Part shown: positions 9,658 to 31,359 of the stretch, in pieces
Layout of the letters: every line of letters starts with the position of its first letter
Numbering within the stretch: the stretch's first letter is position 1
Source of the DNA: Candidatus Bathyarchaeota archaeon
Lineage (GTDB): Archaea; Thermoproteota; Bathyarchaeia; Bathyarchaeales; Bathyarchaeaceae
DNA length: 32,453 nt
Assembly (NCBI GenBank): GCA_965602795.1
Contig: CBFCZR010000003.1
Coordinates: forward strand, 1-32,453
Direction: 5' to 3'
Translations under genes and position numbers: made by a program
Notes under the pieces: model-generated
Told to the model about the DNA's origin: nothing
Seen by the model: the letters and a program-made list of their open reading frames with translations, nothing else
Databases searched by the model: none

Positions 9658-9714
9658 CATATTAGAAGCCTAACAGAGGTACATTGTTGAAAACAGTACT
9701 TTTTCAGAAAATCA
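9658..9714 (-). repeat. Dispersed palindromic intergenic repeat, copy A
   Basis: Minus strand reads TGATTTTCTGAAAAAGTACTGTTTTCAACAATGTACCTCTGTTAGGCTTCTAATATG, collinear with the copy at 17637. Confidence 0.85.
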
Positions 9715-9725
9715 CGTATAAACCA

Positions 9726-10931
9726 TTACTTGTATTTGTAGAATCCTTGCCCCGCTTTTTTGCCTGTCCACCCTTTGTTCATGTAATCTTTGAGTAGAGG
9801 ACATGGTTTGTACAATGCTGTTTTGTGTTGGCTGTATGCTGCTTCCAGTTTGTCCAGAATCGTATCTAATCCTTTTTTGTCGGCGTATTCGCAGGGACCT
9901 GAAGGCCATCCTGTCCCCAGCTTCATTCCCACGTCTATGCTCTTTGGCTCGGCAACATCCTCCAGAACCATCCACGCCGCCTCGTTCACGGCAACAGCCC
10001 AAGAACGTTCCACATCGTATTTTCCAGCCAATCCGGAGGGTATGTACGGTCTACCTTTGCTCCAGTCATAGAATCCCATTCCTGTCTTCTGACCCAGCTT
10101 CTCCTCTTTGACCAGAGGTTCTGTGAGTTCTAGGCAGGGCTGAAATCGTTCACCGTGAGCTTGATGTAATATTTTGCTGACATTATATTCGAGGTCTACC
10201 CCCACAAAGTCAACTAGCTCAAACCAGCCCATGGGAAAACCTCCAATGTATCTTGCGGATGCGTCTATTTCCTCCATTGATGCTTCTCCGCGACGGAAAG
10301 TCCAGAATGCCTCGTTGAAAACAGCTACAAGGATTCTGCTGACAATAAATCCCCGAGAGTCTTTCTTGCATAATATGGGCGTTTTCTCCAGTTCTCTGCT
10401 GACATCCATTATGGCGTTTATGGTTTCGCTGCTGGTGTCGTTGCCTTTGACCACTTCAATCAGCCTAGTCAGCTGCGGGGGGATGAACCAATGCATTCCA
10501 ACAGTCTTATCAGGTCTTCCTGTTGCCTTGCCCATCTCGGTTACGCTCAATGTGGAAGTGTTAGTCGCTATTATGGCGTGAGATGGCGCCGTTTCATCAA
10601 TTTTGGCGAAAACCTTCCTTTTCAGTTCCATGTTTTCGGAGACACATTCGACAGCTAAATCAATGTCAGCTGCCGCCTTCCCATATGATGTGGTTGTGGT
10701 AATTCTTGACAGCGCCGCCTCCGCCGCATCTCTGCTGATTTTGCCTTTCTCCACAAACTTGGTTATGCTCCACTCTATCTCCTGAAGCGCCTTCCTCAAA
10801 CTCTCGTTGCGTCTGCTCAGAAGATTCACTTCATAACCTCTCATGGCGAAAGCCTGAGCTATTCCATGTCCCATCAATCCAGTTCCAATAACAGCCACAC
10901 GCCGAATCTCTCTGCCTGTCGTTGACCTCAC
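9726..10931 (-). CDS. 3-hydroxyacyl-CoA dehydrogenase (NAD-binding domain + two C-terminal domains)
   Basis: VAVIGTGLMGHGIA, E...LKRKVF, ATNTSTL, GMHWF.P, GFPMG, KLGQKTGMGFY, and a second GWPSGP..GKKAGQGFY. Confidence 0.95.
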   Translation of the reverse strand: MRSTTGREIRRVAVIGTGLMGHGIAQAFAMRGYEVNLLSRRNESLRKALQEIEWSITKFVEKGKISRDAAEAALSRITTTTSYGKAAADIDLAVECVSENMELKRKVFAKIDETAPSHAIIATNTSTLSVTEMGKATGRPDKTVGMHWFIPPQLTRLIEVVKGNDTSSETINAIMDVSRELEKTPILCKKDSRGFIVSRILVAVFNEAFWTFRRGEASMEEIDASARYIGGFPMGWFELVDFVGVDLEYNVSKILHQAHGERFQPCLELTEPLVKEEKLGQKTGMGFYDWSKGRPYIPSGLAGKYDVERSWAVAVNEAAWMVLEDVAEPKSIDVGMKLGTGWPSGPCEYADKKGLDTILDKLEAAYSQHKTALYKPCPLLKDYMNKGWTGKKAGQGFYKYK

Positions 10932-10937
10932 CCTTTT

Positions 10938-11378
10938 CTAGATTGGAATAAACTCGTAAATAGCTCGTCCATCAGAATTGACCTTAGCCTCAAGCTTAAC
11001 CCTCATGCCCACTTCTACGTCTTCTCTTTCTACGCCAGTCAACCAAGCCAACGCTCTAACGCCCTCCTTGAGCCGAGCAATAGCAACAATGTAGTCGGAT
11101 TCGTTTGAGAAGCTGGCTGGCTTCACAACTATCTGCGTGAAGGTTTCGATTTCGCCCTCCCCATCCAGCTCCGTCCACTTCATGTTTGATGAGCCACAGT
11201 CCCCGCAATCGGCAACTGGAGGGAAATGAAGCTTTCCGCATTTCTGGCATTTTGTGGTGTATATTTTTCCTTCTTCTAGTCCCTTCCAGAACTTTGATGT
11301 TCTGCTTATGGGCAGGTTATAGGTTAGGTGCAGTGTTCTGGCGCTCTTTAATGTCGGAGGTTTGTCCATGTTTTTCAT
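10938..11378 (-). CDS. DUF35/ChsH2-like Zn-ribbon + OB-fold protein (thiolase partner)
   Basis: FW..L..GK, C..CG..HFPP..DCGDC, OB-fold G.IETFT. ATGA overlap with the thiolase stop. Confidence 0.92.
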   Translation of the reverse strand: MKNMDKPPTLKSARTLHLTYNLPISRTSKFWKGLEEGKIYTTKCQKCGKLHFPPVADCGDCGSSNMKWTELDGEGEIETFTQIVVKPASFSNESDYIVAIARLKEGVRALAWLTGVEREDVEVGMRVKLEAKVNSDGRAIYEFIPI

Positions 11379-12541
11379 CTCCTCAGTATGGTCACATAGC
11401 AGTAGTGTCCTGTTCCTCCCGTGTTGTGAGCTAACGCGGTGTAGTTTTTCATGGGAGCCTGCCTTCCTTTTGGTTTTATCTCCTCTCTTAACTGCTTTGT
11501 TAACTCTACAAGCATGGCTACGCCGGTGGTTCCGATAGGGTGACCCTTAGCCTTCAATCCCCCATCAACGTTAACCGGGATTCTGCCCCCCACCTCAGTC
11601 TCCCCCTCCCTAACCATTCTTGCTCCTTCACCCTTTTCGCAAAAGCCCAAGTCCTCATACGCCATGATTTCCGCTATGGTGAAGCAGTCATGAACTGTCG
11701 CCACATCCACAGCCTTCGGCGAGACACCAGCCATCCTATAAGCCATTCTTGATGCCCTCACAGAAGCCTCCAACCCCACATAATTCTCTCTCTTGGACAG
11801 ATTAGCGGTGTCCGAAGAAAATCCTATGGACTCTATCCACACCGGGTCCTCTACTCCCAACTCCTTCACCTTCTCCTCAGATGCTAACACAACCGATGCG
11901 GCGCCATCAGTTATTGGACAGCAATCATAGAGCTTCAATGGCCACGCAATCACGGGTGAGCTGAGCACTTTTTCTGCGGTTATTTCGTGTTGTAGGTGAG
12001 CCAGCGGATTCATGGCTCCGTACCGGTGGTTCTTGACGGCGACCAAGGCAAGGTCTTCCTCTTTGGTATCATACTTTTGCATGTGCTGGACTGCATGAAC
12101 CGCATAGTAGGCGGGGAAGGTCATGCCGAAATTTTCGAATTCCCACAGATAATATCCTGCTCTGCCTATCATCTCCAATGCGGTTGGGGTATCTATCTGC
12201 CTCATCTTCTCGACTCCGACAACCAACGCCGTGTCTAGTTGCCCAGATGCTATTGCAGAGTAGGCGTTGAAGGCGGCGGCGCTTCCTGAAGCACAGGCTG
12301 CCTCGCATCGGACCAAGCCTGCTCCAGTCAGTCCGCAGTATTCTGCTATTACAACGGCGGGTAATGGTTCTTCTGACCAGACGCCCATCGAGCCGACAAC
12401 CACGTAGGGTATTTGTTTGGCTGTTAACCCTGAATCTTCTAGGGATGGCTGGACAGCCTCAAACGTCAACTCGGAGAGGTTAACGTCTGACCTGTCTCCG
12501 AATCTGCTGTGTCCCACCCCGATAATCGCTACTTTATTCGT
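11375..12541 (-). CDS. Thiolase (archaeal/SCP2-like acetyl-CoA acyltransferase)
   Basis: Catalytic EAACASG, HDCF, GHPIG, HNTGG. The conserved first strand NKVAIIGVG lies upstream of GTG 12517, and the in-frame codon at 12541 is ACG. Confidence 0.93.
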   Translation of the reverse strand, partial: TNKVAIIGVGHSRFGDRSDVNLSELTFEAVQPSLEDSGLTAKQIPYVVVGSMGVWSEEPLPAVVIAEYCGLTGAGLVRCEAACASGSAAAFNAYSAIASGQLDTALVVGVEKMRQIDTPTALEMIGRAGYYLWEFENFGMTFPAYYAVHAVQHMQKYDTKEEDLALVAVKNHRYGAMNPLAHLQHEITAEKVLSSPVIAWPLKLYDCCPITDGAASVVLASEEKVKELGVEDPVWIESIGFSSDTANLSKRENYVGLEASVRASRMAYRMAGVSPKAVDVATVHDCFTIAEIMAYEDLGFCEKGEGARMVREGETEVGGRIPVNVDGGLKAKGHPIGTTGVAMLVELTKQLREEIKPKGRQAPMKNYTALAHNTGGTGHYCYVTILRR

Positions 12542-12563
12542 ATTTCATCCCTGCCAAACACTG

Positions 12564-13379
12564 CTATCCTGATTCAACAGTGTCCCTCTTTTTTGTTTCC
12601 CTCTGAGACAAAAACGATTCTATCTTCTCCTTGGTTTCTCTTTTGGAGAAAAGCAGAGCAAAAAGGTCTGTTTCATTCTTTAACCCCGACTTGAGTAGAC
12701 TTTGTGTTACCGCATTGATGGCACGTTTTGCATGTTTCAGCGCCTCTGGCTGATATTCACATAGTCTCTGAGCTAGGGCTTCTGCTTCCGCCTTCAGCTC
12801 TTCATGGGGAACAACTTTGTCCACTAAGCCCATCTTTAGCGCTTCCTCGGCTTTCACCCTGTCCCCCACCATAATCAGCCGCTTAGCCTCTGCCACGCCA
12901 ACAGTCCATGCGAGTCTTTGGGTTCCTCCCCACCCCGGAATTATGCCCAGTTTCATCTCGGGGAACCCCAATTTTGCATGGTCGGATGCTATTCTGAAGT
13001 CACAGGCAAGCGCGAGTTCCAGTCCCCCGCCTAGAGCGTAGCCGTTAATTGCGGCTAAAACAGGTTTAGACAATGCTTCCACTTGAGAAAAGACCTGTTG
13101 TCCCTTTCTGGAAAATTCTGCAGCTGTTTCTTGTGTGAGTTTGTGGAGTTGTGTGATGTCTGCTCCTGTGCTGAATGCCTTTTCTCCTTCTCCTGTGATT
13201 ATGACGCATCTGATGTTGTTGTCTTTTTCTGTGTTGTCCAGTACTTCTGAGAGTTCCTGTAGCATGGTGGCGTTTATTGCGTTCAGCTTGTCGGGTCTAT
13301 CAAGAGTTATCCATGCGGTGGGCTTTTCTTTTCTGAGCTTTATTGTGGCATAGTGCTTTGACACGGTTAGATGCCTCAA
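12564..13379 (-). CDS. Enoyl-CoA hydratase (crotonase family)
   Basis: LDRPDKLNAI, AFSTGADI, AINGYALGGGLELALACD, PEMKLGIIPGWGGTQRL; both catalytic Glu present. Confidence 0.95.
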   Translation of the reverse strand: MRHLTVSKHYATIKLRKEKPTAWITLDRPDKLNAINATMLQELSEVLDNTEKDNNIRCVIITGEGEKAFSTGADITQLHKLTQETAAEFSRKGQQVFSQVEALSKPVLAAINGYALGGGLELALACDFRIASDHAKLGFPEMKLGIIPGWGGTQRLAWTVGVAEAKRLIMVGDRVKAEEALKMGLVDKVVPHEELKAEAEALAQRLCEYQPEALKHAKRAINAVTQSLLKSGLKNETDLFALLFSKRETKEKIESFLSQRETKKRDTVESG

Positions 13380-13410
13380 GAGGTTGATGTTGTTGGCGAA
13401 ATTTAAGATT

Positions 13411-14559
13411 TCAATATAACTTGGTGAGCTGCTTGAGGATGGCTAATCTCTGAATCTCGGATGTTCCCTCATAGATTTCGGTTACTTTTGCGTCCCTGTA
13501 GAACCTTTCAACCCTATATTCGCCTAGGTAACCGTAGCCGCCCAAAGTTTGAATCGCAACATCAGCCGCCCGCACTGCCACACTGCTGGAGTATAGTTTA
13601 GCCATGGAAGTCAACATTGAATCCACATTGTTCTGGTCTATGCTGCTTGCAGCCTTGTATGTTAGCAGTCTTGCTGCCTCGATTTCGGTTGCAAGTTGGG
13701 CTAGTTTGGCTCCTATCTGCTGGAACCTGATTATGGGTTGTCCTGCGGATTGCCGTTTTTTGGCGTGTTTGAGGGCTGTTTCGAGTGCTCCCTGTGCGGT
13801 TCCCACTGCCTGCGCGGCGATGGCTGTTCTGCTTATGGTGAAGAAGTCTATGGAGTGGCTGAAACCGTTGTTCAGTTCGCCCAGCATGTTGTTTGGGCTT
13901 ACTTTCACGTTTTTTAGGGTGACTGTGCCTGTTTGTATGCATCGGATTCCCATCTTGTTAGACAGTTTTGTTACTGTTACTCCAGATGCCTCTTTGTCCA
14001 CTATAAATAGGGTTTGGCTTTTGCGTGGTTTGTCTCTGCTGCCTGTCTGGCATAATACTGTGATGAAGTCGGCTATGGGCACGTTTGTTATGAGGGTTTT
14101 TGTTCCGTTTATTCTCCATCCGTCTCCATCTTTAACCGCTGTGGTGTCCACTGTTGTTATGTCTGTTCCCCGTTTTGGTTCTGTGAAGGCAGCGGCAGAT
14201 ATACTGTCTCCACGGCAGAGGGGTGGAAGGTAACGGTTTTTCTGTTCTTCTGTTCCGTGGAGGAGAAGCAGGTCGCTTCCGAAGGTTCCCATCATGCACG
14301 CTAACCCTAATGACGAGTCTGCTCGGCACATTTCCTCCATGGCTAAGCAATCCGCTAGGTAGCCTTGTCCTCCGCCTCCGTACTTTTCTGGAATGAATAG
14401 GCTTGGGAATCCTTGCTTTGCAGCTTTACGGTAAAGCTCTATTGGAAACTGTTCTTTTCTGTCCAGCTCCAAGGCAAGGTCTGGGTTGAATTCTTTTTCG
14501 CAGAAATTTCTGACAGAAGTTTTTAGTTTCTGCTGTTTCTCGGTTAACGTGAAGTCCAT
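13411..14559 (-). CDS. Acyl-CoA dehydrogenase
   Basis: IPEKYGG, FTEP..GTD, INGTKT.ITN, KMGIR, FQ.I..KLA, GGYGY..EY.VERFYRDAK, IYEGTSEIQR. Confidence 0.96.
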   Translation of the reverse strand: MDFTLTEKQQKLKTSVRNFCEKEFNPDLALELDRKEQFPIELYRKAAKQGFPSLFIPEKYGGGGQGYLADCLAMEEMCRADSSLGLACMMGTFGSDLLLLHGTEEQKNRYLPPLCRGDSISAAAFTEPKRGTDITTVDTTAVKDGDGWRINGTKTLITNVPIADFITVLCQTGSRDKPRKSQTLFIVDKEASGVTVTKLSNKMGIRCIQTGTVTLKNVKVSPNNMLGELNNGFSHSIDFFTISRTAIAAQAVGTAQGALETALKHAKKRQSAGQPIIRFQQIGAKLAQLATEIEAARLLTYKAASSIDQNNVDSMLTSMAKLYSSSVAVRAADVAIQTLGGYGYLGEYRVERFYRDAKVTEIYEGTSEIQRLAILKQLTKLY

Positions 14560-14654
14560 TAGAATTCACCAATAGCTAATGTGAAGGGGCTTGGAGGATA
14601 AAACTGTTCTCGAAGCTGAAAAATGCTGTCTCTGAGTTGTTGTTTATGGTGATT

Positions 14655-14969
14655 TTATCGGTCTTGATACATTTTGTCTAAGGTTTTTCTCAGTTGGCGT
14701 ATGTCATGTTCCAGATCGTTTACTTTGGCTTGGAGGTTGTTGAATGCTTCCGTGAATCGTACCTGATTTTCGAATGCTGTGATAATGTCGTTTCCATGAT
14801 TTTTGAAGCCTTTAATCACAAACTCCAATAGAAAAAGGAATTCGTTGTCCTTTTTGCTTAGCTGTCCTCTTGCTCGGAAGCCCTCTAAGAATGCTTTAGC
14901 CTTCAAATACGCCTGCTCATTCTCATTTCTGGTCTTCTGTAACTTCTGGAGCGCTTTCTCCTTATCCAT
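14655..14969 (-). CDS. Hypothetical alpha-helical protein with C-terminal coiled coil
   Basis: Fills an intergenic gap. Heptad pattern FNNLQAKVNDLEHDIRQLRKTLDKM. Start is ATG 14969 (or 15005). Confidence 0.7.
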   Translation of the reverse strand: MDKEKALQKLQKTRNENEQAYLKAKAFLEGFRARGQLSKKDNEFLFLLEFVIKGFKNHGNDIITAFENQVRFTEAFNNLQAKVNDLEHDIRQLRKTLDKMYQDR

Positions 14970-15083
14970 CAGAAAACCCTTCTCTAACACACAATATCTT
15001 TTCATTACATTTAATATTTAAGCTAAACTTAGAAAGAATCCTACCGCAAAGAATGCGGACTAGAAAAACCGAATTGTGTTGAT

Positions 15084-15143
15084 GCTTGGTTTTTCCGAAA
15101 AAAACTGTTTTTCAACAATCATCTACTATTAGGAGCCTAATAG
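15084..15143 (+). repeat. Dispersed palindromic intergenic repeat, copy B
   Basis: GCTTGGTTTTTCCGAAAAAAACTGTTTTTCAACAATCATCTA followed by CTATTAGGAGCCTAATAG (15126-15143). Confidence 0.9.
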
Positions 15144-15182
15144 AACGCCAATTTTATCTCTTTAATTGGAGAACGATAATGA

Positions 15183-15821
15183 TTAAGCTATCAACACTAA
15201 CCCGAAAGACTCTGGATTCTTCTTGAATGGGTAAGGTATAGGTATGCCGGCGTTCTCCAAAGTCTGCAGAACATTGATTCCCACAGCCTGCGCTGAGTAG
15301 CGCGCCTCTGTTGGATGAGTGCATATCTCTTCAACGTTGCATTCATCGCATATCACACAGGAGCCGGTGGTGAAGCCTAAAGCAAGAGGGTAGCCCCCAC
15401 TCATGGCCGCCTTTTCGAGGGCACGGATGTTCTTAACTAATTCTTTCTTTTCGGCTTTCCAGGAAGTCCAGAATGCATCTATTTTTTCATTCATCTCGTC
15501 TGTTAGGCTTGGGTCGTTTTTGTCTTTAGACAGCAGTTTAGCGACTTCTGCTGTTGCTTCTGCATGGCTCTTAATTTTGAAAACGAGCGCGTAACTGTAT
15601 TCGCTCAGAATTTTTTGGAATTCGTCAACGCTGGGTGCATAGGGCGGGCACATCAAAGTTTTTCCGTATTCTTTGCAGCCTACTCGGCATTTGAGCACAA
15701 CCCGGTTCTCAACAACTATTTCATCGGCTGGAATCACCTTTGCCGCTGTTGCGCCAAGCTCCAACGACAAATCCCTCAGGAATCCGAGTTTGGTTATGTC
15801 TGCTTCAGGTTTCATCATCAC
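15183..15821 (-). CDS. DUF2284 predicted metal-binding protein
   Basis: KCRVGCKEYGKTLMCPP and GSCVICDEC....CTHP..ARYS..AVGINV. Confidence 0.85.
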   Translation of the reverse strand: MMMKPEADITKLGFLRDLSLELGATAAKVIPADEIVVENRVVLKCRVGCKEYGKTLMCPPYAPSVDEFQKILSEYSYALVFKIKSHAEATAEVAKLLSKDKNDPSLTDEMNEKIDAFWTSWKAEKKELVKNIRALEKAAMSGGYPLALGFTTGSCVICDECNVEEICTHPTEARYSAQAVGINVLQTLENAGIPIPYPFKKNPESFGLVLIA

Positions 15822-15846
15822 TCACTTTTCACAAAATTTTTCACGG

Positions 15847-16653
15847 TTAAACTTTTTGGGCGTTGAACACTATTCGCTCTGGATACGTGTAAACGTTCAT
15901 TCTTTTGGCTCTGGCGAATCCGACCAAGGTTATTCCTGTCAGTTGGGCTGCTTCCAAGCCAGAACTGATTGCCGCTGCCAAAGAAGCGATTATGGGAAGT
16001 TTCATGCGTGCCGCCTTCAAAACGATGTCTCCGCTGAGTCTGCCGCTCAAGGCAAGAAAAAGGTTTCTGAAGTCCATGTTTTTTGTTGCTCCGACACCGA
16101 TGACCTTGTCCACGGCGTTGTGGCGCCCCACATCCTCAGCCAAAGCCACCAATTTTCCATCTGGTGAGTAGAGTGCCGCCGCATGAACCCCACCAGTCTT
16201 TCTGAATTGTTCAGCAATAGTGTTGAGCTGCAGCACCGACTGATAAACAACCGCTGCGTTTACGGTTGGGGTCATATACAATTTGGGAAGACTGCTGATG
16301 GCTTCTGAGAGGGGACTGTAGTCTGGGGAGCCGCAGGCGGAAACTACCAGACGCGCAAGATGCTGTGATTTTGCGATTCGCTGCTCAGCGTCAATGTCTG
16401 GTTTGAGTTTCACTAAGCATTTTCCATCTTTTTTCAGCACCAAATCGTCTATTTCGGCTGTTGATTTCAGGAGTCCTTCGGAGAGAAGATGCCCAACAAC
16501 CATTTCTTTCAGCTGGTCTGGAGAGCAGAGGATTGCGCCGTAGTGTGTTTTGTTGAGGAAGATGTGAAGGGATGTTTCTTCTGCTACATAATCGGTTTTC
16601 TCTTCGATTGTTTGGTCTGAAACGTTCATTCTGGAAACTTTGATTTTCCGCAT
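15847..16653 (-). CDS. fdhD: Formate dehydrogenase accessory sulfurtransferase FdhD
   Basis: VAEE, GHLLSEG, FRKTGGVHAAA, EDVGRHNAVDKVIG, SGRLS, TLVGFAR. Confidence 0.95.
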   Translation of the reverse strand: MRKIKVSRMNVSDQTIEEKTDYVAEETSLHIFLNKTHYGAILCSPDQLKEMVVGHLLSEGLLKSTAEIDDLVLKKDGKCLVKLKPDIDAEQRIAKSQHLARLVVSACGSPDYSPLSEAISSLPKLYMTPTVNAAVVYQSVLQLNTIAEQFRKTGGVHAAALYSPDGKLVALAEDVGRHNAVDKVIGVGATKNMDFRNLFLALSGRLSGDIVLKAARMKLPIIASLAAAISSGLEAAQLTGITLVGFARAKRMNVYTYPERIVFNAQKV

Positions 16654-16665
16654 GCACGTTTTCTC

Positions 16666-17544
16666 CTAGGACTTGAGTTCAGAGAGGATGTAGCTGACGA
16701 TTTCGTCGGCGATGTTAGTTTTTGTAACAGATTGCAGTCCTTTCCATCCCGGTTGACTATTCAACTCTATAATTAGGGGTCCATCTGGTCCTTCTATGAT
16801 GTCTACGCCTGTAACCTTGCAGCCTACAACCTTAGCTGCCTTAACTGCAAGAGTTTCCAGTTCCTCAGACAGATTTAAGGATAAAGGTTTTGCGCCCAAA
16901 CTCACGTTAGTCTTCCAGTTAGTTGATGTCCGCCGCATAGCAGCCACCACACGGTCTCCGACAACAAAAGCGCGGATGTCCGAACCTCCGTGAGGAATAA
17001 ACTCTTGCAGGTAGAGAACGCCATGATAGAAGGATATTGTCAGGAAGACTCTTGTGGCGATGTCTGGGTCAGTTATTCTGGTGGCGCCTAATCCTCTTGA
17101 ACCAAACAGCGGCTTCACTACAACATCTTCGCCTAGTTCGTGGAAACATTTCAGCGCTTCGTCAGGGTTCTCTGTAACTGCTGTGCGGGGAACAGGTAAC
17201 CCGTTCTCTTGAAGGAGGTTTAGGGAACAGTATTTGTTCACTGCTCGTTCGATGGAGAGGGGAGGATTGATTATCAGCAGTCCATGCCGTTCCAGCTTGT
17301 GCAGAAGATCCATCCTGAAGAGTAGCTGCTCTACGGACCCGCGTGCAATGGGGCGGGTGATCATGGCATCCAAGTCTTGAAGAATGTCCACTTTTTTCAC
17401 TGATGCCTCGGGAGTGTAGTTTATGCGTCCTATTACCTCTCGATAATCAAAACAGATTGGGGTAATGTTCTGTTTTTCAATAGCTTTCCGCAGTTGCGTG
17501 GAGCACCAACCATTCTGATCTCTGGTCATAATTCCCATTTTCAA
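16666..17544 (-). CDS. RimK-family ATP-grasp alpha-L-glutamate ligase (MptN/Orf5-like)
   Basis: LPVPRT, VVKPLFGSRGLG, YLQEFI, DIRAFVVG, WKTNVSLG, GVDII, ELNSQPGW. Confidence 0.9.
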   Translation of the reverse strand: MKMGIMTRDQNGWCSTQLRKAIEKQNITPICFDYREVIGRINYTPEASVKKVDILQDLDAMITRPIARGSVEQLLFRMDLLHKLERHGLLIINPPLSIERAVNKYCSLNLLQENGLPVPRTAVTENPDEALKCFHELGEDVVVKPLFGSRGLGATRITDPDIATRVFLTISFYHGVLYLQEFIPHGGSDIRAFVVGDRVVAAMRRTSTNWKTNVSLGAKPLSLNLSEELETLAVKAAKVVGCKVTGVDIIEGPDGPLIIELNSQPGWKGLQSVTKTNIADEIVSYILSELKS

Positions 17545-17636
17545 CTGTTATCCCTTCATGCATCAAACCGCGTTCTAACAGATTAAAGTAATGCCACACA
17601 AAATGTTTCTTCGCCAAGACACATTTTTCTGTTATT

Positions 17637-17698
17637 GCTTGGCTTTTCCGAAAAAAGACTGTTTTCAACAATGTACTTCTATTAGGAGCCTAATATGA
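17637..17698 (+). repeat. Dispersed palindromic intergenic repeat, copy C
   Basis: GCTTGGCTTTTCCGAAAAAAGACTGTTTTCAACAATGTACTTCTATTAGGAGCCTAATATGA. Confidence 0.9.
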
Positions 17699-17787
17699 GG
17701 CTCCCTTTTCGTGTGTGCAAGTTTTTACGCAAACTAATTAAATAGTGCTGATACACTGAAGCAAACATCAACCAAAGGTATGCTATC

Positions 17788-22689: not shown

Positions 22690-22737
22690 TAAAATTTATA
22701 AGATGTTTGCCGTCATAAATTCTTTTGAGGGGGAGGA

Positions 22738-23524: not shown

Positions 23525-23711
23525 AACTGGACATACAAAAAAATTGTGCAGTCAGTCGAAACTCGTTTTCTTTTAGTTTCGCTTTACTATCTGCTTCTTA
23601 CGAGCACTTTTCCACCCACTCTTTGTGGTGGAACTTTATATCAGAGTAACGTATAAAGAACTGAAGTTTCACTGCAGAAGGTAAAACTGCGACAACTAAA
23701 GCAAAATCAGG

Positions 23712-25229
23712 ATGTATGATATGATGGAAGAGGATCTCAGCACTGTGGGACCAGGAAGGCTAGTCACAGGCGGAGCTTGGTTCTTGGGACTAATGATTCT
23801 AAGCGGTGTTTTCTGGCTTTTGTTGGGAATTCAAGTGAGCAGGGTATACGGACCTTCTGGTTTTGGCTTATTCAGCATGGCATACTCAGTGTTCGATTTC
23901 TTGTGGGCGCTCATTTTTGGGGGACTGTTTGAGGGTTTAATCCATTTTGGTGCAGGATACTTAACCAAAAAAGACGCAAATGTCGCGCGCTATTTCTCAA
24001 ACTATGTAAGGTATCTCACGGCGATAAGTTTAGTAATTTTCATTTTCTTAACCACTCTATCTTTTCAAACATCCGACATTATATTCAGGATAATGCTTCT
24101 TTCTCTGGCATTCGCATTCCTGTTTTCAGGAACAAAAGATGCACTATCGTCAATAATAGGGTCGTTACAAAAAAGCAAACAACTTTCGATAATACAATCC
24201 AGCGGATTTTATGCAGTTTCGATATTCGGCATGATAGTTGTAGTGCTCAATTTACCCCTTAATCTATTGCCCGTCTTGATAGTAGTCGCTCCTGTCTGTC
24301 AATTGCTGTTTTGCGTCTATTTTTTAAGGCCATATATCAAAAATCTGATTTCGTATAGCGTCGAAGTTTTTGCGAATAAAGACAAGGAATATTCAATATT
24401 AGAAGACTTGAAGCAGTTCAAGCAAATACTCATTTTTGGTTTTTCTATATCAGTCGGAAAAATCTCGTTCATGATAATGAAGAACTTGGACCTACCTATA
24501 CTTAATTTGTTCTTTGATTACGCCAATGTGGGAGTTTATAGCGTTGCAGATGCAGTGTCCAGTGTACTGTTTTCCATGACGGCTTTCTCTCTTCCAATTC
24601 TTTCATCTATGTCTGAAGCATGGAGCAAAAAAGACGGAGTCCTGATGGAAAAGTATGTTAAAATTTCTGTGAAATACCCTCTAATGTTAGGCTTGCCTTT
24701 AACGATAATAATTTTTGCTTTAGCAGAACCCATTGTTGTAGGGATATATGGAGCTGCTTTCCAAGGAGCTATAATGCCTCTTCAAATTCTTATTGTCGGC
24801 ACATTCCTTCTTATGTTTGGATACACTCTTTCTTCTGTACTAATAGGCATTGCAAAACCTAAATTAGCAGGAACGTTAATGGCGGGCGCCGCTGCACAGT
24901 ATATCTTCTCGCTCTTTATCCTTGTGCCCCTCTTTGGTCTAACCGGAGCTGCAATTTCTTTGACACTAACGGGTGTCACCTCTCTTGTTTTGATTCCAAT
25001 TTTCATCAAATATCATCTAAAAACCGACGTATTTTCAGGGCTTCCTAAACTTTTATTCTCGGGCGCTATTTTGGCACTTGTTCTCTTTCTTTTACCCAAA
25101 ACCAATCCAATTATACTAATTGTTGGAACGATTGCAAGCATTGCAGTCTACGCTATACTACTATACTATACCGGATACCTTAACCAAGAAGATATTAACA
25201 TACTGAAAAAATCAAGAACACAATCATAA
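23712..25229 (+). CDS. MOP-superfamily flippase (Wzx/polysaccharide biosynthesis)
   Basis: Many TM helices; SRVYGPSGFGLF, D..IL......VGVYSVA, LVPLFGLTGAAIS. Confidence 0.88.
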   Translation: MYDMMEEDLSTVGPGRLVTGGAWFLGLMILSGVFWLLLGIQVSRVYGPSGFGLFSMAYSVFDFLWALIFGGLFEGLIHFGAGYLTKKDANVARYFSNYVRYLTAISLVIFIFLTTLSFQTSDIIFRIMLLSLAFAFLFSGTKDALSSIIGSLQKSKQLSIIQSSGFYAVSIFGMIVVVLNLPLNLLPVLIVVAPVCQLLFCVYFLRPYIKNLISYSVEVFANKDKEYSILEDLKQFKQILIFGFSISVGKISFMIMKNLDLPILNLFFDYANVGVYSVADAVSSVLFSMTAFSLPILSSMSEAWSKKDGVLMEKYVKISVKYPLMLGLPLTIIIFALAEPIVVGIYGAAFQGAIMPLQILIVGTFLLMFGYTLSSVLIGIAKPKLAGTLMAGAAAQYIFSLFILVPLFGLTGAAISLTLTGVTSLVLIPIFIKYHLKTDVFSGLPKLLFSGAILALVLFLLPKTNPIILIVGTIASIAVYAILLYYTGYLNQEDINILKKSRTQS

Positions 25230-25359
25230 GACCTGCAATTCCGCCCTTCCAATCATTTGTTAATACGCCTACCTTAGCATTTATGAGGCACCAGGAGAAT
25301 ATAGTGTGTAATGGAGCGCTAATTCACGTTTTTAGTGTAACTCTAACATAATTTCGGAA

Positions 25360-25938
25360 GTGGCTATCGATATGAGCGAGGAAAAAACGGTCAAGAAAGC
25401 TGAGCTAATTTCAGCTATGCGAGACTACAAAAGGAAAAGAACTAGAAGTAAAGAGAGAAAAGTAGATTTCACGGTTTCACCTTCTGAGGAAGATGAAAAA
25501 ATCTTGATACGAGCGATAACTGAACCTAAATCAAAATCAGGATACATTGGCGTGGACACTGTTCGAGAGATGACTGAGTTTCTGGAAAAAAAGAAATACG
25601 ACAAAGGCATCCTCATCGGAAAAAAATTCACCAACGCAGCGAAAAGAGAGATGAAAAACGCCGAAATCGAAGTGGTTTCGGAGGCAATCTCGCCTAATTT
25701 CAAGGTGAAACGACTTTACTCGACGATAGGAAATTATGTGGAGAAATTGTGTAAGGCCAAATGCGGCAAAGTTCCTGTAAAGGATTCTGATTGCAAGGGG
25801 TATGTTGACGGACATTACACATGTGATGTCAGATTAATTAGTGACAATGCTGATTTTCATTACGAGAAAGGTTGGGTAAACTTCTTAGAAAGAGATTTAG
25901 TCAAGCTTTTGGCTATCGAAAAAGACGTAAAGAAATAG
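25360..25938 (+). CDS. Mrr_cat/RPB5-N-like restriction-endonuclease-fold protein with Cys-rich C-terminal domain
   Basis: IGVDTVRE.......YDKGILIG..FTNAAK; C-terminal C-x3-C..C..C. Confidence 0.7.
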   Translation: MAIDMSEEKTVKKAELISAMRDYKRKRTRSKERKVDFTVSPSEEDEKILIRAITEPKSKSGYIGVDTVREMTEFLEKKKYDKGILIGKKFTNAAKREMKNAEIEVVSEAISPNFKVKRLYSTIGNYVEKLCKAKCGKVPVKDSDCKGYVDGHYTCDVRLISDNADFHYEKGWVNFLERDLVKLLAIEKDVKK

Positions 25939-26035
25939 TTTTATTTACATTAATTTTTATTTGGTTGAACGTGTTCCGTGCTCTTAGTTTAAATCTTTGG
26001 AGCCAATTAGTTAGCTGACAGGAGACTCTAAAGAA

Positions 26036-26903: not shown

Positions 26904-28082
26904 TTAGAGTGCTTTGAATGCTTCAGACCATTCTTTGTAGGTTGATATGACCCGTGGAGATACGCTGGGCTTTCTATCCGCTAAGATGCCGTTGAAGTCG
27001 TCCATAGATAGGGGTCTAGGCTTAGCGTGCTTGTCACTTGCTTTACCTGAATCAAAGAGTTCTCCGATAACCCGCAAGTGCGCTGACTGGCAAATGTCCC
27101 GTATGTCGCTTCCAGAGAAACCACCAGCCAATCTGGCAAACTCGTCCAGATCCACTTTCGTCGACAAATTCAGATTAGCAGTGTAAAGCTTGAGCATGTT
27201 TAATCGAGCATCGTGGTCGGGCAGGGGAACCATGATTCGTTTCTGAAATCTGCGTATGAAAGGCCAGTCTAGAGCCCAAGGCTTGTTAGTGGCTCCGATA
27301 ACGTACGCATGGATGTTCTTGCCTTTGTCCATAACGCCGTCCATCTCCTTGAGAAACTGGTTGCGAACTCTGGTTTCTCCACCAACCTCATTAGAGTGCA
27401 TACCAATCAGCGAATCTAGCTCATCGATAAACAGTATAGCGGGTCGCCCATTATTCGCAGTTTTTCTGGCTTGATTAAACAGCTTTGCTACATTCTTTTC
27501 AGCTTCGCCTAACCATTTAGACATAACCGAGGCTGCATCCACCGAAACGAAGGCTGCGTCGATTTCTGTTGCTACGGCAGCGGCTAGCAGAGTTTTTCCG
27601 CATCCTGGAGGACCAAAAAGAAGTATTCCTCTAGGCCATCCTAACGGAAATAGGTCTGGTCTCTCTACCGGGTACACTATGGCTTCTTTGATGGCTTTTT
27701 TAGCGTGGTCTAATCCTACGACTTGGTTCCAGTTTACGTTAGGTTTTTCTTTGAGTACAAGTTCATCGTAGCTTGCTTTTTCATCCTTTTTTGTTTCTGC
27801 TTGGGGTTCCATTGTCTCCATCGGCTTATCTGATTGCGGCTGTACGGGTTGAACGGGGCCTTCTCCCTGCAGAGCCTTTATCCGATCTTGATACGCCTGT
27901 GCACGTTGAATGTAAACCGTGTTTAGTCCATAGTTCGGGTATAACCTGACGAGTTTCAGGAGGGTAGAGATGCCTTTCTGGTACATTGTGATGGCCATCC
28001 CCCTTGAACCCTGTTTGTCAAGGCGAACAGCCTCCAAAGCGTATTTTGTTGCCGCTTGTTCAAGTTCTTGAGAAGCACTCAT
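26904..28082 (-). CDS. cdvC: Vps4-like AAA+ ATPase CdvC (MIT + AAA domains)
   Basis: MIT region A.KYA..AV..DK.G...AI..YQK..; Walker A GPPGCGKT; pore loop SKWLGE; Walker B LFIDE; GATNKPW.LD; RRFQKR. Confidence 0.95.
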   Translation of the reverse strand: MSASQELEQAATKYALEAVRLDKQGSRGMAITMYQKGISTLLKLVRLYPNYGLNTVYIQRAQAYQDRIKALQGEGPVQPVQPQSDKPMETMEPQAETKKDEKASYDELVLKEKPNVNWNQVVGLDHAKKAIKEAIVYPVERPDLFPLGWPRGILLFGPPGCGKTLLAAAVATEIDAAFVSVDAASVMSKWLGEAEKNVAKLFNQARKTANNGRPAILFIDELDSLIGMHSNEVGGETRVRNQFLKEMDGVMDKGKNIHAYVIGATNKPWALDWPFIRRFQKRIMVPLPDHDARLNMLKLYTANLNLSTKVDLDEFARLAGGFSGSDIRDICQSAHLRVIGELFDSGKASDKHAKPRPLSMDDFNGILADRKPSVSPRVISTYKEWSEAFKAL

Positions 28083-28087
28083 ATGAA

Positions 28088-28957
28088 TCACGACGCAATT
28101 TTGATTTTACCTTTTACACCCAACTGCTCCAATGCCTTTTCGATTTCTCCGCATGCAACATTCAATTCATTGGCACATTGAGTGATATCCAGCTGTCCTT
28201 CACGTCTTTTTGCGTAATCCAACACTGATTCCTCTAATTCATCATTAACAGTCCAAGTGATTCGTTTCATTTCCGTGTCTTTGTATGACACGTAGCTCTG
28301 TTGCTTCCCTGGCTCAGAAATTTCTGAACAGGAAGCAGTGAGGGCAACCATCTTTCTCTGTTTTGCCACCCGTTGGGGTTGAGGCGTTTCCATGACCGGA
28401 GCAGAAGCTGGAGGCTCAGGTAATGTCTCGGTTATTTTGTCCTCCAGAAACTCGGCGACTTCTGCAAGAACTTCTTCCCCGCCTGGCGTCTTAACGTCCG
28501 TGGGCACTTCAAGTTTTGTGTCATCGATTTTGGACATGGAGATAACTTCGAATATGGTTTCATTTACCCTTTCCATTTCAAAGGCCATCTGAGGCATGAA
28601 GGAACCGAGGCTTTTTGTCACCGCTTGAAGGTTGTTGAGAACTGGTTTCAAATCCGCAAAGGCTGCGTTGAATTCTTTGAGTGTTTCTAGCCGTAAGATG
28701 ATGCGTTCTACAAGAATCTGAGTGTGATAGATGACTTTGGTGAGTTTTCTGATTTCAGAAAGTTCGTTAGCAAAGATTGCTGCTCGTTCCTTGTTTTTTT
28801 CTTTTAGAGCTTTTGCGCATGTTTTGAAGAGAATTTTATCTCTCCGAGTGAGTTTGACGATAACTTGTCCTAGTTTAAACTGTTGAGACTTAAGCTTAGG
28901 TACCGCCTTAACAACTACTTGTTCAAAGTTGGGGGAAGAGCGGAAAGGGTTTTTGAT
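28088..28957 (-). CDS. cdvB: ESCRT-III protein CdvB (Snf7 core, MIM2-like LPEPP, C-terminal winged helix)
   Basis: The frame is open from 28975. Manual translation upstream of TTG 28651 gives RDKILF...ERAAIFANELSEIRK...VERIILRLETL. Probable start is ATC at 28957 behind GAGGT. Confidence 0.88.
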   Translation of the reverse strand: MKNPFRSSPNFEQVVVKAVPKLKSQQFKLGQVIVKLTRRDKILFKTCAKALKEKNKERAAIFANELSEIRKLTKVIYHTQILVERIILRLETLKEFNAAFADLKPVLNNLQAVTKSLGSFMPQMAFEMERVNETIFEVISMSKIDDTKLEVPTDVKTPGGEEVLAEVAEFLEDKITETLPEPPASAPVMETPQPQRVAKQRKMVALTASCSEISEPGKQQSYVSYKDTEMKRITWTVNDELEESVLDYAKRREGQLDITQCANELNVACGEIEKALEQLGVKGKIKIAS

Positions 28958-28983
28958 GGAGATTACCTCACAGAACTAATGTA

Positions 28984-29760
28984 TTACGAACTTTCTTTGC
29001 TTGGATTCCGTACATGAACAACTACTGGGGGTTCTGGAAGGTCCGAAGAGATAGGAGCAGGTGGTTTTGGAATCTCCTGTTGTTCTGGGCTTTTTGTTTG
29101 TGGTTCTTCAGGTGTCTTTGTTTCCGCTGTTTTTGCTTCAGGTGCAGTTACAGGTTTCTCTCCGAGGAGTAGATTGGCTAATTTGCTCTTCAAAGCTTCT
29201 AAGTCGCTTTTTTCAGCGTTAACTCCCTTTAGTCCCCATTGGATTATCCCCAAAGCCTTTTGGTATGCCTCGCCGTTTAATCTGCCGATTTCACGTTCAA
29301 TTTCCAGATTTATCAAGGCTGAGTGAAGCGAGTGAACCTGTTTGTTGCATCGGTCAATCTCCTCGTCTATTTCATCCGTGAGTCCTTTGGCGTTATCTTT
29401 TAGTTGATTCAAAGCCCCTTCAAAAGTGCTGTGTAGATCATCGTACATTTCAGGCGGAATTTTCTTCTTTTCTACAAGCTCATTTAAAGCCCTGTCTTTT
29501 CTCCATATCAATGGAATTTCGTTACAGAGAGCTTTAGCTTTCAGTTTGAGCGGCGGCGAGATCACTAGGCTCCCGTTGTCAATTTTTATTTGATCGCTGG
29601 AGTAACTAAGGAATTCTCCGTCCCCGTGTTCAACAAAGATTCCATCTATGCGACCTGTGGGTGTTACCTTGAATGAAGCTACTCGACCGATTTGCCTTCC
29701 ATATTCATCCTTTATTTGTTTACCAACAAAAAGAAAGGGGTTGGAAATGGATTTTGACAC
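28984..29760 (-). CDS. cdvA: CdvA-like cell division protein
   Basis: PRC barrel FVGKQIKDEYGRQIG, long coiled coil, Pro-rich linker, C-terminal strand PPVVVHV; SD AGGAGGTGA. Confidence 0.92.
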   Translation of the reverse strand: MSKSISNPFLFVGKQIKDEYGRQIGRVASFKVTPTGRIDGIFVEHGDGEFLSYSSDQIKIDNGSLVISPPLKLKAKALCNEIPLIWRKDRALNELVEKKKIPPEMYDDLHSTFEGALNQLKDNAKGLTDEIDEEIDRCNKQVHSLHSALINLEIEREIGRLNGEAYQKALGIIQWGLKGVNAEKSDLEALKSKLANLLLGEKPVTAPEAKTAETKTPEEPQTKSPEQQEIPKPPAPISSDLPEPPVVVHVRNPSKESS

Positions 29761-29810
29761 AGTGTCACCTCCTTAATTTCCGTGTACATCCGTGTTTTTA
29801 CAGACCTATT

Positions 29811-30458
29811 TTATTGCGAACTGGCCTCACCAAATGATGGGATGCCCGTGGGCAAGTCTGGGAATTTCTCTTTGACTTTCTGTTCTGCAACAGTAGCTGC
29901 CTCGTTCAGTATCTTCTGTGCGTCGTCTCCTGCTGTCTGGAAGTCGATGTTCATACCTGAGTTGTAGCCTGCGTCCATGATGATTCCGCTGAGCAAGTTT
30001 CCGATGCTTCCGATTTCACGTTCTGCTTCTGGAAAGACTGAAGACATTCCGGTTTTGACGCTGCGTAGCACATTAATTGCTGGCGCCAAAGTGCTGACTA
30101 CGTCGCCTAGTTCTGAAACTGTGCTTAATCTAAGGACTATCTGTTCTAGGGCTAGCCTAGAGTGCATGATCATTTTTTCCATTTTGCGTATTTCAGCTAG
30201 TTCGTTGGCAAAGACGTTGGCTCGTGCCATGTCATGCTTTGTGTAGGCTTGAACGATTTTTGCGAATATTGACTTGTCGCGTTCTGTGAAGCGGTCTGCT
30301 GCTTTGTCTAATTTCTGTATCTGCATTTCCATTCTTTTTACGGCGAAATCTAGTCTTGGTTTCAAAGGACCTGGAGGTCTAACGGCATCCTTAATTTTAC
30401 TGCTGAGAGGTGTGTCGTCAACTCCTTCTCCCCATTTTTTTGCAAATTTTTCTGACAT
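29811..30458 (-). CDS. ESCRT-III/Snf7 paralogue (CdvB1/2-like, no winged helix)
   Basis: RANVFANELAEIRK, ALEQIVLRLSTV.ELGD, AQKILNEA, C-terminal FPDLP. ATG 30458 behind GAGG. Confidence 0.93.
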   Translation of the reverse strand: MSEKFAKKWGEGVDDTPLSSKIKDAVRPPGPLKPRLDFAVKRMEMQIQKLDKAADRFTERDKSIFAKIVQAYTKHDMARANVFANELAEIRKMEKMIMHSRLALEQIVLRLSTVSELGDVVSTLAPAINVLRSVKTGMSSVFPEAEREIGSIGNLLSGIIMDAGYNSGMNIDFQTAGDDAQKILNEAATVAEQKVKEKFPDLPTGIPSFGEASSQ

Positions 30459-30499
30459 ACTAATTTCCTCACGCAAGGAGGTATGTTTAAAGCGTATTA

Positions 30500-30537
30500 T
30501 TACATTGTTAACATGTAACGAACATCTACATATATAC
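30500..30537 (-). promoter_or_regulatory. Putative cdv operon promoter with palindromic operator
   Basis: TATATA at ~30531-30536; near-perfect palindrome TTACAT-T-GTTAAC-ATGTAA at 30500-30518. Confidence 0.5.
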
Positions 30538-30683
30538 CAGACATAGTGTGCCTATTCCGTCGCCGTTTTGAGCTTTAAATTTAAGATTGAAAGAGAGACG
30601 GGGCGCAGAGGCGAAAATAAACAGTTTCGTGTAAGTTACACTCAAAAGCGCGAAGATTTAACTGTTAAAACAAGGTGAAACGA

Positions 30684-30899
30684 ATGGGTGACAGAATAAA
30701 AATACTAGGAGCATTTGCCCTGCTAGGTTTCATGGGCGGAGTAATCGCTAACATCGGTTTCCACACAGTGTGGCCTTGGTTGGCAGCTAACTTCCCTTCG
30801 CTATTCGCATCAGAAATCGTCATATCAGGCATTGCAGGCGCTCTGATAACTACATTCTTTGTAGTGATCTGGGTATATCTAAGCAAGCCATCTCAATAA
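30684..30899 (+). CDS. Small two-TM membrane protein, divergent from the cdv cluster
   Basis: GGTGA SD before ATG 30684; two Gly-rich hydrophobic helices. Confidence 0.72.
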   Translation: MGDRIKILGAFALLGFMGGVIANIGFHTVWPWLAANFPSLFASEIVISGIAGALITTFFVVIWVYLSKPSQ

Positions 30900-31190
30900 A
30901 GGGAAAAACCTCGCTCCCCCCAATTGATTCGATGCTGCCGGCATCTTTCTATAGCGGTAAGCAAATTGTAATAGCGTAGCAAAGCGGGCACCAAAGAAAT
31001 GACTTTGTATTTGTTGCATTACTGTATCCAGTGATTAATGTCTGCGCGGTGTAGTAGGCGGGGATAGACCGAGGCTTGATATAGCTGGAGTTAAAGGGTG
31101 TTTTCACAGCGTATCGTGGGGTTGTGGAAAAGCGGGCGAATTTCAGACTGATGAACGTGTGAACCTTAGACAGGAATCTTTTGTTGTGCT

Positions 31191-31248
31191 GCTGGTTTTC
31201 AGAAAAAAGTTTGTTTTCAACAATCCACTGCTATTAGGAGCCTAATAG
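31191..31248 (+). repeat. Dispersed palindromic intergenic repeat, copy D
   Basis: GCTGGTTTTCAGAAAAAAGTTTGTTTTCAACAATCCACTG followed by CTATTAGGAGCCTAATAG (31231-31248). Confidence 0.9.
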
Positions 31249-31290
31249 GGTCGGCTGGTTTGGTTTGTGTTAGCAAAAATTTGTGAACCC

Positions 31291-31359
31291 CTGTCCTTCA
31301 ACAATATTCTGTTATCAGGAGCTTTAATGTGATTGTTGAGAAGCAGTTTTTTCCAAAAA
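31291..31359. repeat. Degenerate two-armed copy E of the dispersed repeat
   Basis: CTGTCCTTCAACAAT, then a decayed core TTATCAGGAGCTTTAAT, then the inverted arm ATTGTTGAGAAGCAGTTTTTTCCAAAAA. Confidence 0.65.

Follow-up and report, generated by a model that had tools for sequence, protein, structure and literature searches.

A dispersed intergenic repeat family of Candidatus Bathyarchaeum with conserved sequence blocks and its association with rearrangement breakpoints

The 32,453-nucleotide stretch analysed here (the window; contig CBFCZR010000003.1 of Candidatus Bathyarchaeota archaeon, assembly GCA_965602795.1) carries four copies, A to D, of a short intergenic repeat that belongs to a family dispersed through the genome. 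Copies of this family coincide with rearrangement breakpoints much more frequently than other sites do, and there is an excess of them immediately behind tRNA genes and gene 3' ends. We tentatively read the family as a protein-read DNA repeat resembling repetitive extragenic palindromes (REP) and bacterial interspersed mosaic elements (BIME), which is homogenised by copy-to-copy recombination, serves as a favoured place for chromosomal exchange and has no recognisable transposase. We assign this reading a probability of roughly 0.45, i.e. somewhat below one half.

According to this proposal, one or more putative sequence-specific proteins would read the conserved blocks as double-stranded DNA, and the family would spread and be homogenised through homologous recombination between copies and gene conversion, not through cut-and-paste transposition. 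The host might benefit from insulation or termination between transcription units, or from a role of the repeat in DNA topology. Among the functions considered in the initial annotation of this DNA, a protein-binding or chromosome-organising site is possible and is the one that we prefer.

Anatomy of the repeat unit

The window is contig C3 of a genome (designated G000) of 1,567,377 bases (1.57 Mb) in 175 contigs, with 45% G+C and a completeness of 94%. Other G-numbers denote the genomes with which it was compared, in particular its closest relative G019 (about 87% identical; 1.19 Mb fetched) and G001 (1.17 Mb fetched). All four copies that the initial annotation had placed in the window proved real by profile search and pattern statistics (Table 1). 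With at most two mismatches, the 13-mer TGTTTTCAACAAT has seven matches in the window against 2.17 expected, a number reached by none of 100 shuffles; the 16-mer TATTAGGAGCCTAATA, with at most three mismatches, has seven matches against 0.16 expected, all of them at the four loci.

The family consensus is (ttgTTGCTTGG)TTTTYCnGAAAAAAG, 3-4 nt, TGTTTTCAACAAT, 7 nt, (C/T)TATTAG-N4-CTAATA(TG). It contains four conserved blocks at near-fixed spacing, GAAAAAAG being followed after 3-4 nt by TGTTTTCAACAAT and after a further 7 nt by TATTAG-N4-CTAATA(TG). The unit is about 62-75 bp long across the family. Its information content drops abruptly past CTAATATG and fades slowly toward the 5' side, and the first 20 nt downstream of the element consist to 71% of G+T. 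In contigs from four public DNA runs, loose ends cluster at the repeat edges (9657/9658 at copy A; 17635-17644 and 17695-17698 at copy C), which gives a unit of about 62 nt and agrees with the ~60 bp originally proposed. The contigs of these runs also pile up, as depth spikes, on the three window copies examined.

The repeat had been called palindromic. This description holds for the 3' block, as TATTAG-N4-CTAATA is a true 16-bp palindrome (hereafter P3), but not for the supposed 5' palindrome (P1), whose left arm is variable (36 to 67 of 80 copies paired, depending on the position). Recurring subtypes are seen in the spacer (7 nt) and in the centre of P3 (4 nt), and the centres are found in both orientations (GAGC 40 and GCTC 15; TCTC 9 and GAGA 2). 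Runs of five to six T (T5-T6) are present on both strands of the copies, and inverted repeats TCAACAAT ... ATTGTTGA surround P3 in 22 of 83 copies.

Copies may lie next to each other, mostly as direct tandems: there are seven such pairs in G000, nine in the fetched part of G019 and ten in that of G001, corresponding to 7/7, 9/10 and 10/10 of the neighbouring pairs, respectively. A few head-to-head doubles with one common P3 also occur (G000 C17:10140-10238 and C15:17515-17620; G019 C2:247952-248040). Copy D represents a subfamily with a GTGTGAAC motif upstream and the tail CTAATAGGGTCGGCTGG, and aligns with copies on G000 contigs C134, C143, C42 and C121. It is trailed by a degenerate fifth unit that was not reported by the profile search and that aligns with second units following the same subfamily elsewhere.

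Copy number and distribution

The initial annotation had predicted a dispersed, unannotated family with many intergenic members genome-wide, and the scan of G000 bears this out. Searching with an nhmmer profile made from 52 seeds gave 99 matches at E<0.01, 92 of which had E<=1e-6, i.e. about one copy per 17 kb. Of these 92 copies, 83 lie outside crude open reading frames (ORFs), which cover 88% of the genome.

A strict pattern has 75 matches in G000; of the 24 congeners (Candidatus Bathyarchaeum), 22 contain it, with 1 to about 100 matches each; among 16 genomes of other genera a single one was positive, with one match. The reversed pattern, used as a control, had no matches in any genome. The strict pattern undercounts the family, because a more sensitive sequence-only covariance model (R1; 60 copies from several species, with no more than 27 candidates scored per genome) found at least 25 matches in the congener G006, which has no strict-pattern match. 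Beyond the genus, R1 found eight matches in G032, which belongs to another family of the order, and two in G112 of another genus. Across the class, 12 of 151 sampled genomes had a match; apart from the genomes just named, most of these matches were single and weak. The distant members retain the blocks GAAAAA, GTTTT(C/T)AAC, TATTAG and C(A/T)AATATG. The range of the family thus covers the genus and extends into further genera of the order.

Perfect copies were also noticed on short contigs of metagenome-assembled genomes (MAGs) labelled Saccharibacteria, Christensenellaceae and Alphaproteobacteria (L035, L081, L105), and on a contig of a genome from another family (G071:C163, L240). These are most likely mis-binned Bathyarchaeum contigs and were excluded from the range given above; the repeat might thus be of use as a marker in binning.

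Persistence of sites and homogenisation of the interior

Individual sites are long-lived. At site A, a copy in the same place and orientation is found in G024, G019, G001 and G004, with a degenerate relic in G006, and its core is invariant while the flanking intergenic DNA is unalignable. Site B has an orthologous copy in G019 and G024, and none at the corresponding place in G001. When 62 flanks of G000 copies were placed in G019, 39 had an element on the same side, one had it on the switched side (a double-headed case) and 22 had none; the reverse comparison gave the same figures (39, 1 and 22), and G019 versus G001 gave 37, 2 and 27.

Within orthologous copies, similarity exceeds the background at the outer parts of the element (0.53 versus 0.34 for the 12 upstream positions, 0.71 versus 0.49 for the P1 left arm, 0.54 versus 0.37 for the tail). 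The 7-nt spacer behaves differently: it was exactly conserved in none of 37 orthologous copies, and its similarity (0.38-0.44) does not exceed the background of 0.44. Subtypes are instead genome-specific, the commonest P3 centre being GAGC in G000 (40 copies) and TCTC in G019 (31 copies), and the spacer preferentially ending in C in G000 and in T in G019. The lack of an orthology signal in the spacer, together with these genome-specific subtypes, shows that the interior is homogenised within genomes. As the blocks are at the same time constant across the order, this points to recognition of the sequence itself.

Association with rearrangement breakpoints

Collinearity was tested with 1200-nt flanks. 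Of the 15 assessable element sites compared between G000 and G019, 11 were broken; the same held for 12 of 256 gaps without an element (p=1.3e-10). Four of the element sites were collinear, six were inverted, four had their flanks on other contigs and one was displaced, while 244 of the 256 control gaps remained collinear. A second pair, G019 and G001 (1.17 Mb), gave 8 broken loci of 19, versus 4 of 155 evenly spaced controls (p=1.7e-6).

Two segments bounded by inverted copies, of 19 kb and 4.2 kb, provide examples, being inverted between genomes; the genes between inverted copy pairs are ordinary housekeeping genes, with no transposases among them. Head-to-head fusions with a shared P3 are located at breakpoints, and both heads of a G000 fusion exist in G019 as separate copies with a single head. 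On either side of copy C in the window lie the RimK and CitG halves, which are contiguous in none of the 24 congeners searched (23 of which had a match); in several congeners, both loci have a copy of their own.

Position relative to genes

Gene contexts were taken from crude ORF calls. The initial annotation had described the window copies as lying between convergent (A and D), tandem (B) and divergent (C) gene pairs. This stands for A, B and C and is uncertain for D, which is followed by small ORFs without a Pfam match. Copy A occupies an 87-nt gap between two convergent genes, one for PolX, with its stop at 9638, and one for 3-hydroxyacyl-CoA dehydrogenase, with its stop at 9726. Copy B is antisense to both neighbouring minus-strand genes, at a distance of 37 nt from the 3' end of a DUF2284 gene and of 70 nt from where ORF 14655-15005 starts; it ends in CTAATAGA and is without the ATG. 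Copy C lies between the divergent RimK and CitG genes, 87 nt from either start.

Across G000, there is no preference for a gene orientation, as had been argued from the four window copies: 19 copies lie in divergent, 15 in convergent and 36 in tandem intergenic regions, the other 22 being at contig ends. Downstream of the copies, the next gene runs in the same direction in 41 cases and is convergent in 37, and the spacing to co-directional downstream starts is not fixed (14 to 581 nt), unlike what a transcription factor site of a single regulon would show. Within tandem regions, 30 of 36 copies are closer to the 3' end of the upstream gene. A copy lies within 100 nt downstream of 7 of 26 tRNA genes, compared with 56 of 1714 ORFs (p=2e-5), and none was present in the 60 nt read upstream of the 26 tRNA genes. 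This placement would suit a role in termination or insulation, and also mere survival where insertions are least harmful. The undiminished share of copies in divergent regions weighs against termination as the sole role. Strand bias relative to the replichores, a check proposed in the initial annotation, was absent from the single-contig genome G024 (41 strict-pattern loci; best two-arc split 15/41, permutation p=0.64).

Could the element instead be a cassette of transcription signals, i.e. a compact promoter, terminator or insulator? GAAAAAAG would then act as a BRE-like box (TFB-recognition element) and TGTTTTCAAC as a weak TATA-like box, with a start near ...AATATG; the transcripts would be short, leaderless or antisense, and the T-runs on both strands would halt read-through. 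The sharp conservation boundary right after ...CTAATA(TG) fits such a cassette, as do the ATG found in 69 of 89 copies, the ...ATATG kept in other genera, the T5-T6 runs and the position behind tRNA genes and gene 3' ends. Moreover, the layout GAAAAAAG-N4-TTTTCAAC is similar to that of the tRNA promoters of G000, GAAA(A)-N2-3-TTAAATA. The element as such, however, does not resemble these promoters, as its putative TATA box has G and C. The variable distance to the downstream gene, the nearly equal numbers of convergent and co-directional genes that the downstream side faces and the undepleted divergent regions speak against the cassette as well, and termination leaves the strong conservation of CAACAAT, TATTAG and CTAATA unexplained. 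On balance we consider it rather unlikely.

Two narrower versions were rejected. An ordinary promoter or transcription factor site does not agree with the spacing, the neighbour orientations and the difference from tRNA promoters. A coding start at the element ATG was discarded since the ORFs that begin there are short (median 16.5 codons, versus 10.5 in another frame), and part of this difference is due to the fixed first codons.

Signs of transposition and mobilising enzymes

The initial annotation proposed, among others, a non-autonomous mobile or REP-like element mobilised in trans. An active element of this kind, similar to transposable elements of the miniature inverted-repeat type (MITEs) or to the REPINs (REP doublets forming hairpins), would depend on an enzyme that is missing from the assemblies or belongs to an unrecognised family, and the conserved blocks would be the recognition sites of that enzyme. 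Several features are as expected for it: strict-pattern copy number ranges from 0 to about 100 among congeners, about a third of the flanks are without a copy in the sister species, the predominant subtypes are species-specific, the element has a sharp 3' end and a fuzzy 5' end, and copies adjoin tRNA genes.

The structural traces of transposition are absent. In the 20-22-nt ends flanking 79 copies, the best inverted 8-mer match, as a measure of terminal inverted repeats (TIRs), scored 5.04 for own pairs and 4.89 for shuffled pairs; the direct 8-mer match, as a measure of target-site duplications (TSDs), was 5.81 versus 5.68. The outer inverted GTGTGAAC...GTTCACAC motifs are confined to one subfamily. 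Two comparisons of filled and empty sites differed by 114 and about 152 nt and had no common ends, so that clean empty sites were not encountered, and no contig bridging or skipping a copy was found in the four public DNA runs. A classical MITE was therefore rejected on the ground that copy-specific terminal repeats and clean empty sites are both lacking. Also rejected were contig 'joints' between window copies (e.g. 15142 to 17651, or 9700 to 15103 on opposite strands), which we take for multi-mapping, as their short sides lie inside the repeat.

The shorter of the two inserts is an observation in its own right. In G019 (C2:50690-50960, compared with G000 C59:1340-1540), the 114-nt segment, which G019 alone of the two possesses, lies 3' of a tRNA-Pro gene and starts with a second CCCACCAA stretch resembling a tRNA 3' end. 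It looks as if the segment had been copied by recombination from behind another tRNA gene.

Mobilising enzymes fared no better. As the initial annotation had stated, the window is without a transposase (none among the 31 ORFs scanned). The Y1 transposase (PF01797) had no matches in G000, the only genome of the group searched for it, and was detected by the same search in 6 of 14 control genomes; TnpB was not found above the family cut-off in G000. Serine recombinases are missing from 22 of 24 congeners, reverse transcriptase and IS110 each from 4 of 5 genomes, and DDE_Tnp_1 from the copy-rich G019 and G024, and no tested transposase family is common to the copy-rich genomes. Tyrosine recombinases are ubiquitous, but their numbers do not track copy number: there are 10 in G006 and 22 in G020, which have few or diverged copies, and 3 in G000 and 2 in G001, which have 75-96 copies. 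Searches for repeats resembling insertion sequences (IS) were negative for G000 and for the 1.19 Mb fetched from G019; the sole repeat of at least 300 nt and above about 90% identity in the latter is a tandem duplication of about 870 nt with 95% identity (C3:105313-107089). Given the absence of these signals, we regard an active mobile element as unlikely.

Site-specific recombination

The behaviour of P3 at breakpoints also invites comparison with attC-, dif- or lox-like sites, in which the 16-bp P3 would be the crossover core of a tyrosine recombinase and the 5' blocks would serve as accessory sites. The P3 arms are symmetric over 6-7 bp, the centre is found in both orientations, and the head-to-head fusions, whose heads have separate single-headed orthologues in G019, join exactly at P3. 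Flank partners are swapped with sides kept in a ratio of 39:1, and the TCAACAAT ... ATTGTTGA repeats recall the R'' and R' boxes of attC. On the other hand, the tyrosine recombinase counts given above are out of step with copy number, serine recombinases are absent from 22 of 24 congeners, and copies are solitary or in direct tandems, with no cassette arrays. The orthology signal, moreover, is lost on both sides of the spacer, and homology-driven exchange within the invariant blocks would explain this loss equally well. Such sites appear to us very improbable.

A broader version is that the blocks are the recognition and crossover sites of a dedicated, non-HUH recombination system of an unrecognised kind. 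This might be an archaeal counterpart of REPINs and their REP-associated tyrosine transposases (RAYTs), or a genome-wide shufflon with its exchange point at TATTAG-N4-CTAATA. Such a system would actively swap and homogenise the copies and thereby reshuffle the Bathyarchaeum chromosome. The both-oriented P3 centre, the fusions joined at P3 and the 39:1 conservation of sides fit such a system; we consider it quite unlikely all the same.

Structured RNA

A repeated small RNA had also been suggested, and here the tests were negative. Rfam had no match in the window at the gathering threshold, and at E<=10 only chance-level matches were seen around copy C; no catalogued family thus corresponds to the repeat. 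The folding energy of 40 copies did not differ from that of shuffles (z = 0.06 and -0.88). P3 has accumulated 33 one-sided changes, eight of which still pair, and no compensatory ones; together with the variable P1 left arm, this indicates a constraint on sequence rather than on a hairpin. The length of about 60-75 nt, the high copy number, the intergenic location and the G+T-rich top strand downstream would suit a family of small structured RNA genes. Each copy, however, is followed by unrelated sequence after the conserved part, and neither folding nor covariation is in favour of the idea, which we find scarcely credible. A C/D-box small RNA was rejected as well, as conserved C or D boxes are missing from the copies and what follows downstream varies.

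Conserved stretches of 330-460 nt beside four copies were considered as candidate non-coding RNAs and were then recognised as a small cassette of three genes on the opposite strand, without an Rfam match. One such cassette lies at G000 C42:11815-12266 (L160:316-767, minus strand), with paralogues at C86, C134 and C123. The four paralogues share 79-85% nucleotide identity, and each has its end some 40 nt away from a GTGTGAAC-subfamily element. They encode a 56-aa protein, a 45-aa protein and a 47-aa zinc-ribbon protein; the first of these, which has no Pfam match, looks by eye like a ribbon-helix-helix fold.

Comparison with known repeat families

The initial annotation called the family 'REP/MITE-like'. 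The term describes a resemblance, as the family has the defining features of neither group. It shares with REP/BIME and REPIN-RAYT systems its short length, intergenic location, about a hundred copies per genome, partly palindromic structure, frequent clustering, species-specific variants and long persistence within a lineage. Unlike REP sequences, which are G+C-rich imperfect palindromes of 20-40 nt, it is A+T-rich, with no stable stem and no compensatory changes, and its clusters are direct tandems (7, 9 and 10 in the three genomes) rather than alternating or inverted doublets. It also differs from REPIN-RAYT systems in its archaeal host and in that no Y1/RAYT gene was found in G000. The definition of REP given in PMC3733652 includes a GTAG or CGTC tag; by eye, no such 5' tag is present in the family consensus. 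Passages in PMC2817692, PMC3733652 and the RAREFAN preprint describe REP/BIME as binding sites for several proteins.

With MITEs the family has in common that it is small, non-coding, intergenic and multi-copy, with copy numbers that vary between related genomes. In contrast to them, it has no TIRs, TSDs, clean empty sites or parent IS that could be found. Archaeal MITEs were surveyed with MITE-Tracker in 8220 genomes (PMC11602168), and the string 'Bathyarch' is absent from the main text of that census.

BOX elements of Streptococcus pneumoniae, enterobacterial repetitive intergenic consensus (ERIC) sequences and the Correia elements of Neisseria are multi-block repeats with subtypes and partial or tandem forms and without a transposase of their own. 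They are about 100-150 bp long, with long hairpins, carry transcription signals and are associated with genome rearrangements. The blocks of these repeats, like those of REP/BIME, are read as double-stranded DNA by proteins. Our family resembles them in its several conserved blocks, subtypes, partial or tandem forms, lack of a transposase of its own and association with rearrangements. It differs in being shorter and in having one true 16-bp palindrome and no folding signal, and there is no sequence relationship.

Integrons have been reported from archaea. The attC boxes read RYYYAAC...GTTRRRY and occur in cassette arrays with or without IntI. Like attC, the repeat is about 60 bp long, has an inner palindrome, is associated with recombination and, in 22 of 83 copies, carries an outer inverted repeat. 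Unlike attC, its core TTTCAAC does not begin with a purine, about three quarters of the copies are without the outer right box, and the copies are dispersed, about one per 17 kb, and do not form cassette arrays next to an integrase.

A literature search for 'Bathyarchaeota' with 'intergenic repeat' returned no paper, and a term search of two Bathyarchaeum/Bathyarchaeia genome papers gave no mention of repeats, transposons or intergenic elements. It seems that nothing is in print on non-coding repeats of Bathyarchaeia.

Weighing the protein-read repeat

Several points weigh against our preferred reading of the family as a protein-read repeat homogenised by recombination. Protein binding by the element is something that we infer, and the binding protein is only putative. 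Divergent regions, which hold 19 of the 70 copies placed between genes, show no depletion. As 22 of 62 flanks have no copy in the sister species, gain or loss must be frequent, and a strict-pattern copy number from 0 to about 100 among congeners resembles the dynamics of a selfish element more than those of an essential host site, bearing in mind that the strict pattern undercounts. Breakpoint enrichment at dispersed repeats is also generic and is by itself no sign of function.

The breakpoint association could furthermore be inflated by assembly errors at repeats. Three breakpoints of G000 (RimK|CitG, C5:1891 and C17:10179) were followed in 24 congeners, and all of them are unique to G000. 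For C17 the opposite arrangement is common to at least 15 congeners, and for C5 the inverted arrangement is common to G019, G007 and G002. As G000 is a fragmented MAG, some of these breakpoints may be mis-joins; 13 of its 350 contig ends fall at an element, versus about 3 expected. A search of metagenome contigs for the exact RimK-element-CitG junction found none, a neutral result, as the records of G000 itself may lie outside that collection. The second genome pair, G019 and G001, keeps the association alive, short of proof.

Other features of the window

The gene content of the window marks its host as an archaeon and includes TFB, CdvA/ESCRT-III/Vps4 cell-division genes and archaeal-type ribosomal proteins. 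The Cdv cell-division cluster (26904-30476, minus strand) is complete (Table 1). The stretch of about 700 nt between this cluster and copy D (30477-31181) has no Rfam match and no convincing ORF, except for a 90-aa ORF that overlaps the Snf7 gene.

Table 1. Repeat copies and Cdv cluster genes in the window (positions counted from its first nucleotide)
Feature	Position	Strand	Details
Copy A	9652..9723	minus	Profile search; P3 palindrome 9660-9675; core 13-mer 9683-9695
Copy B	15075..15146	plus	Profile search; core 15107-15119 (one extra T); P3 15127-15142
Copy C	17631..17701	plus	Profile search; core 17660-17672; P3 17680-17695; ATG 17695-17697
Copy D	31182..31257	plus	Profile search; core 31212-31224; P3 31232-31247
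Degenerate fifth unit	~31275-31331	plus	Direct tandem with D; AAAAATTTGTGAA..CCTTCAACAAT..TTATCAGGAGCTTTAATG; read by eye and alignment
Vps4-like AAA ATPase	26904-28091	minus	
187-aa ORF	28088-28651	minus	Unassigned
CdvA	28984-29760	minus	
ESCRT-III/Snf7 protein	29811-30476	minus	

Three other regions deserve mention. Within the ribosomal operon L3-L4-(91-aa ORF)-L2 (765-4376), a gene for a VTT/DedA-type membrane protein (2856-3587) is located between the 91-aa ORF and L2, an unusual insertion in a conserved operon. An ATP-dependent DNA ligase gene and, directly behind it, one for a PHP-domain DNA polymerase of family X (6132-9638) have the look of a repair pair, whose end is 14 nt away from copy A. 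The stretch 22000-26000 has a lower G+C content (0.38-0.41, against 0.45-0.49 elsewhere) and may be an island; its genes encode a winged-helix protein, a polysaccharide-biosynthesis flippase-like protein and a protein with an Mrr-type restriction endonuclease domain.

Biological significance

Bathyarchaeia are among the most abundant uncultivated archaea; a Bathyarchaeum enrichment culture is described in PMC10477458. The family described here is conserved at order level, with about a hundred copies in a genome. None of the hallmarks of the known mobilisation routes is seen in it, and it marks a large share of the rearrangement breakpoints between the species compared. It therefore offers a handle on the reshuffling of these small genomes, on the archaeal protein that would read such repeats, and on the way in which metagenomic assemblies of the group are broken or misled by short repeats. 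If no dedicated enzyme is behind the family, it would be a clear archaeal example of REP/BIME-like "genomic furniture". If there is such an enzyme, it would represent a new kind of repeat-and-partner system in archaea.

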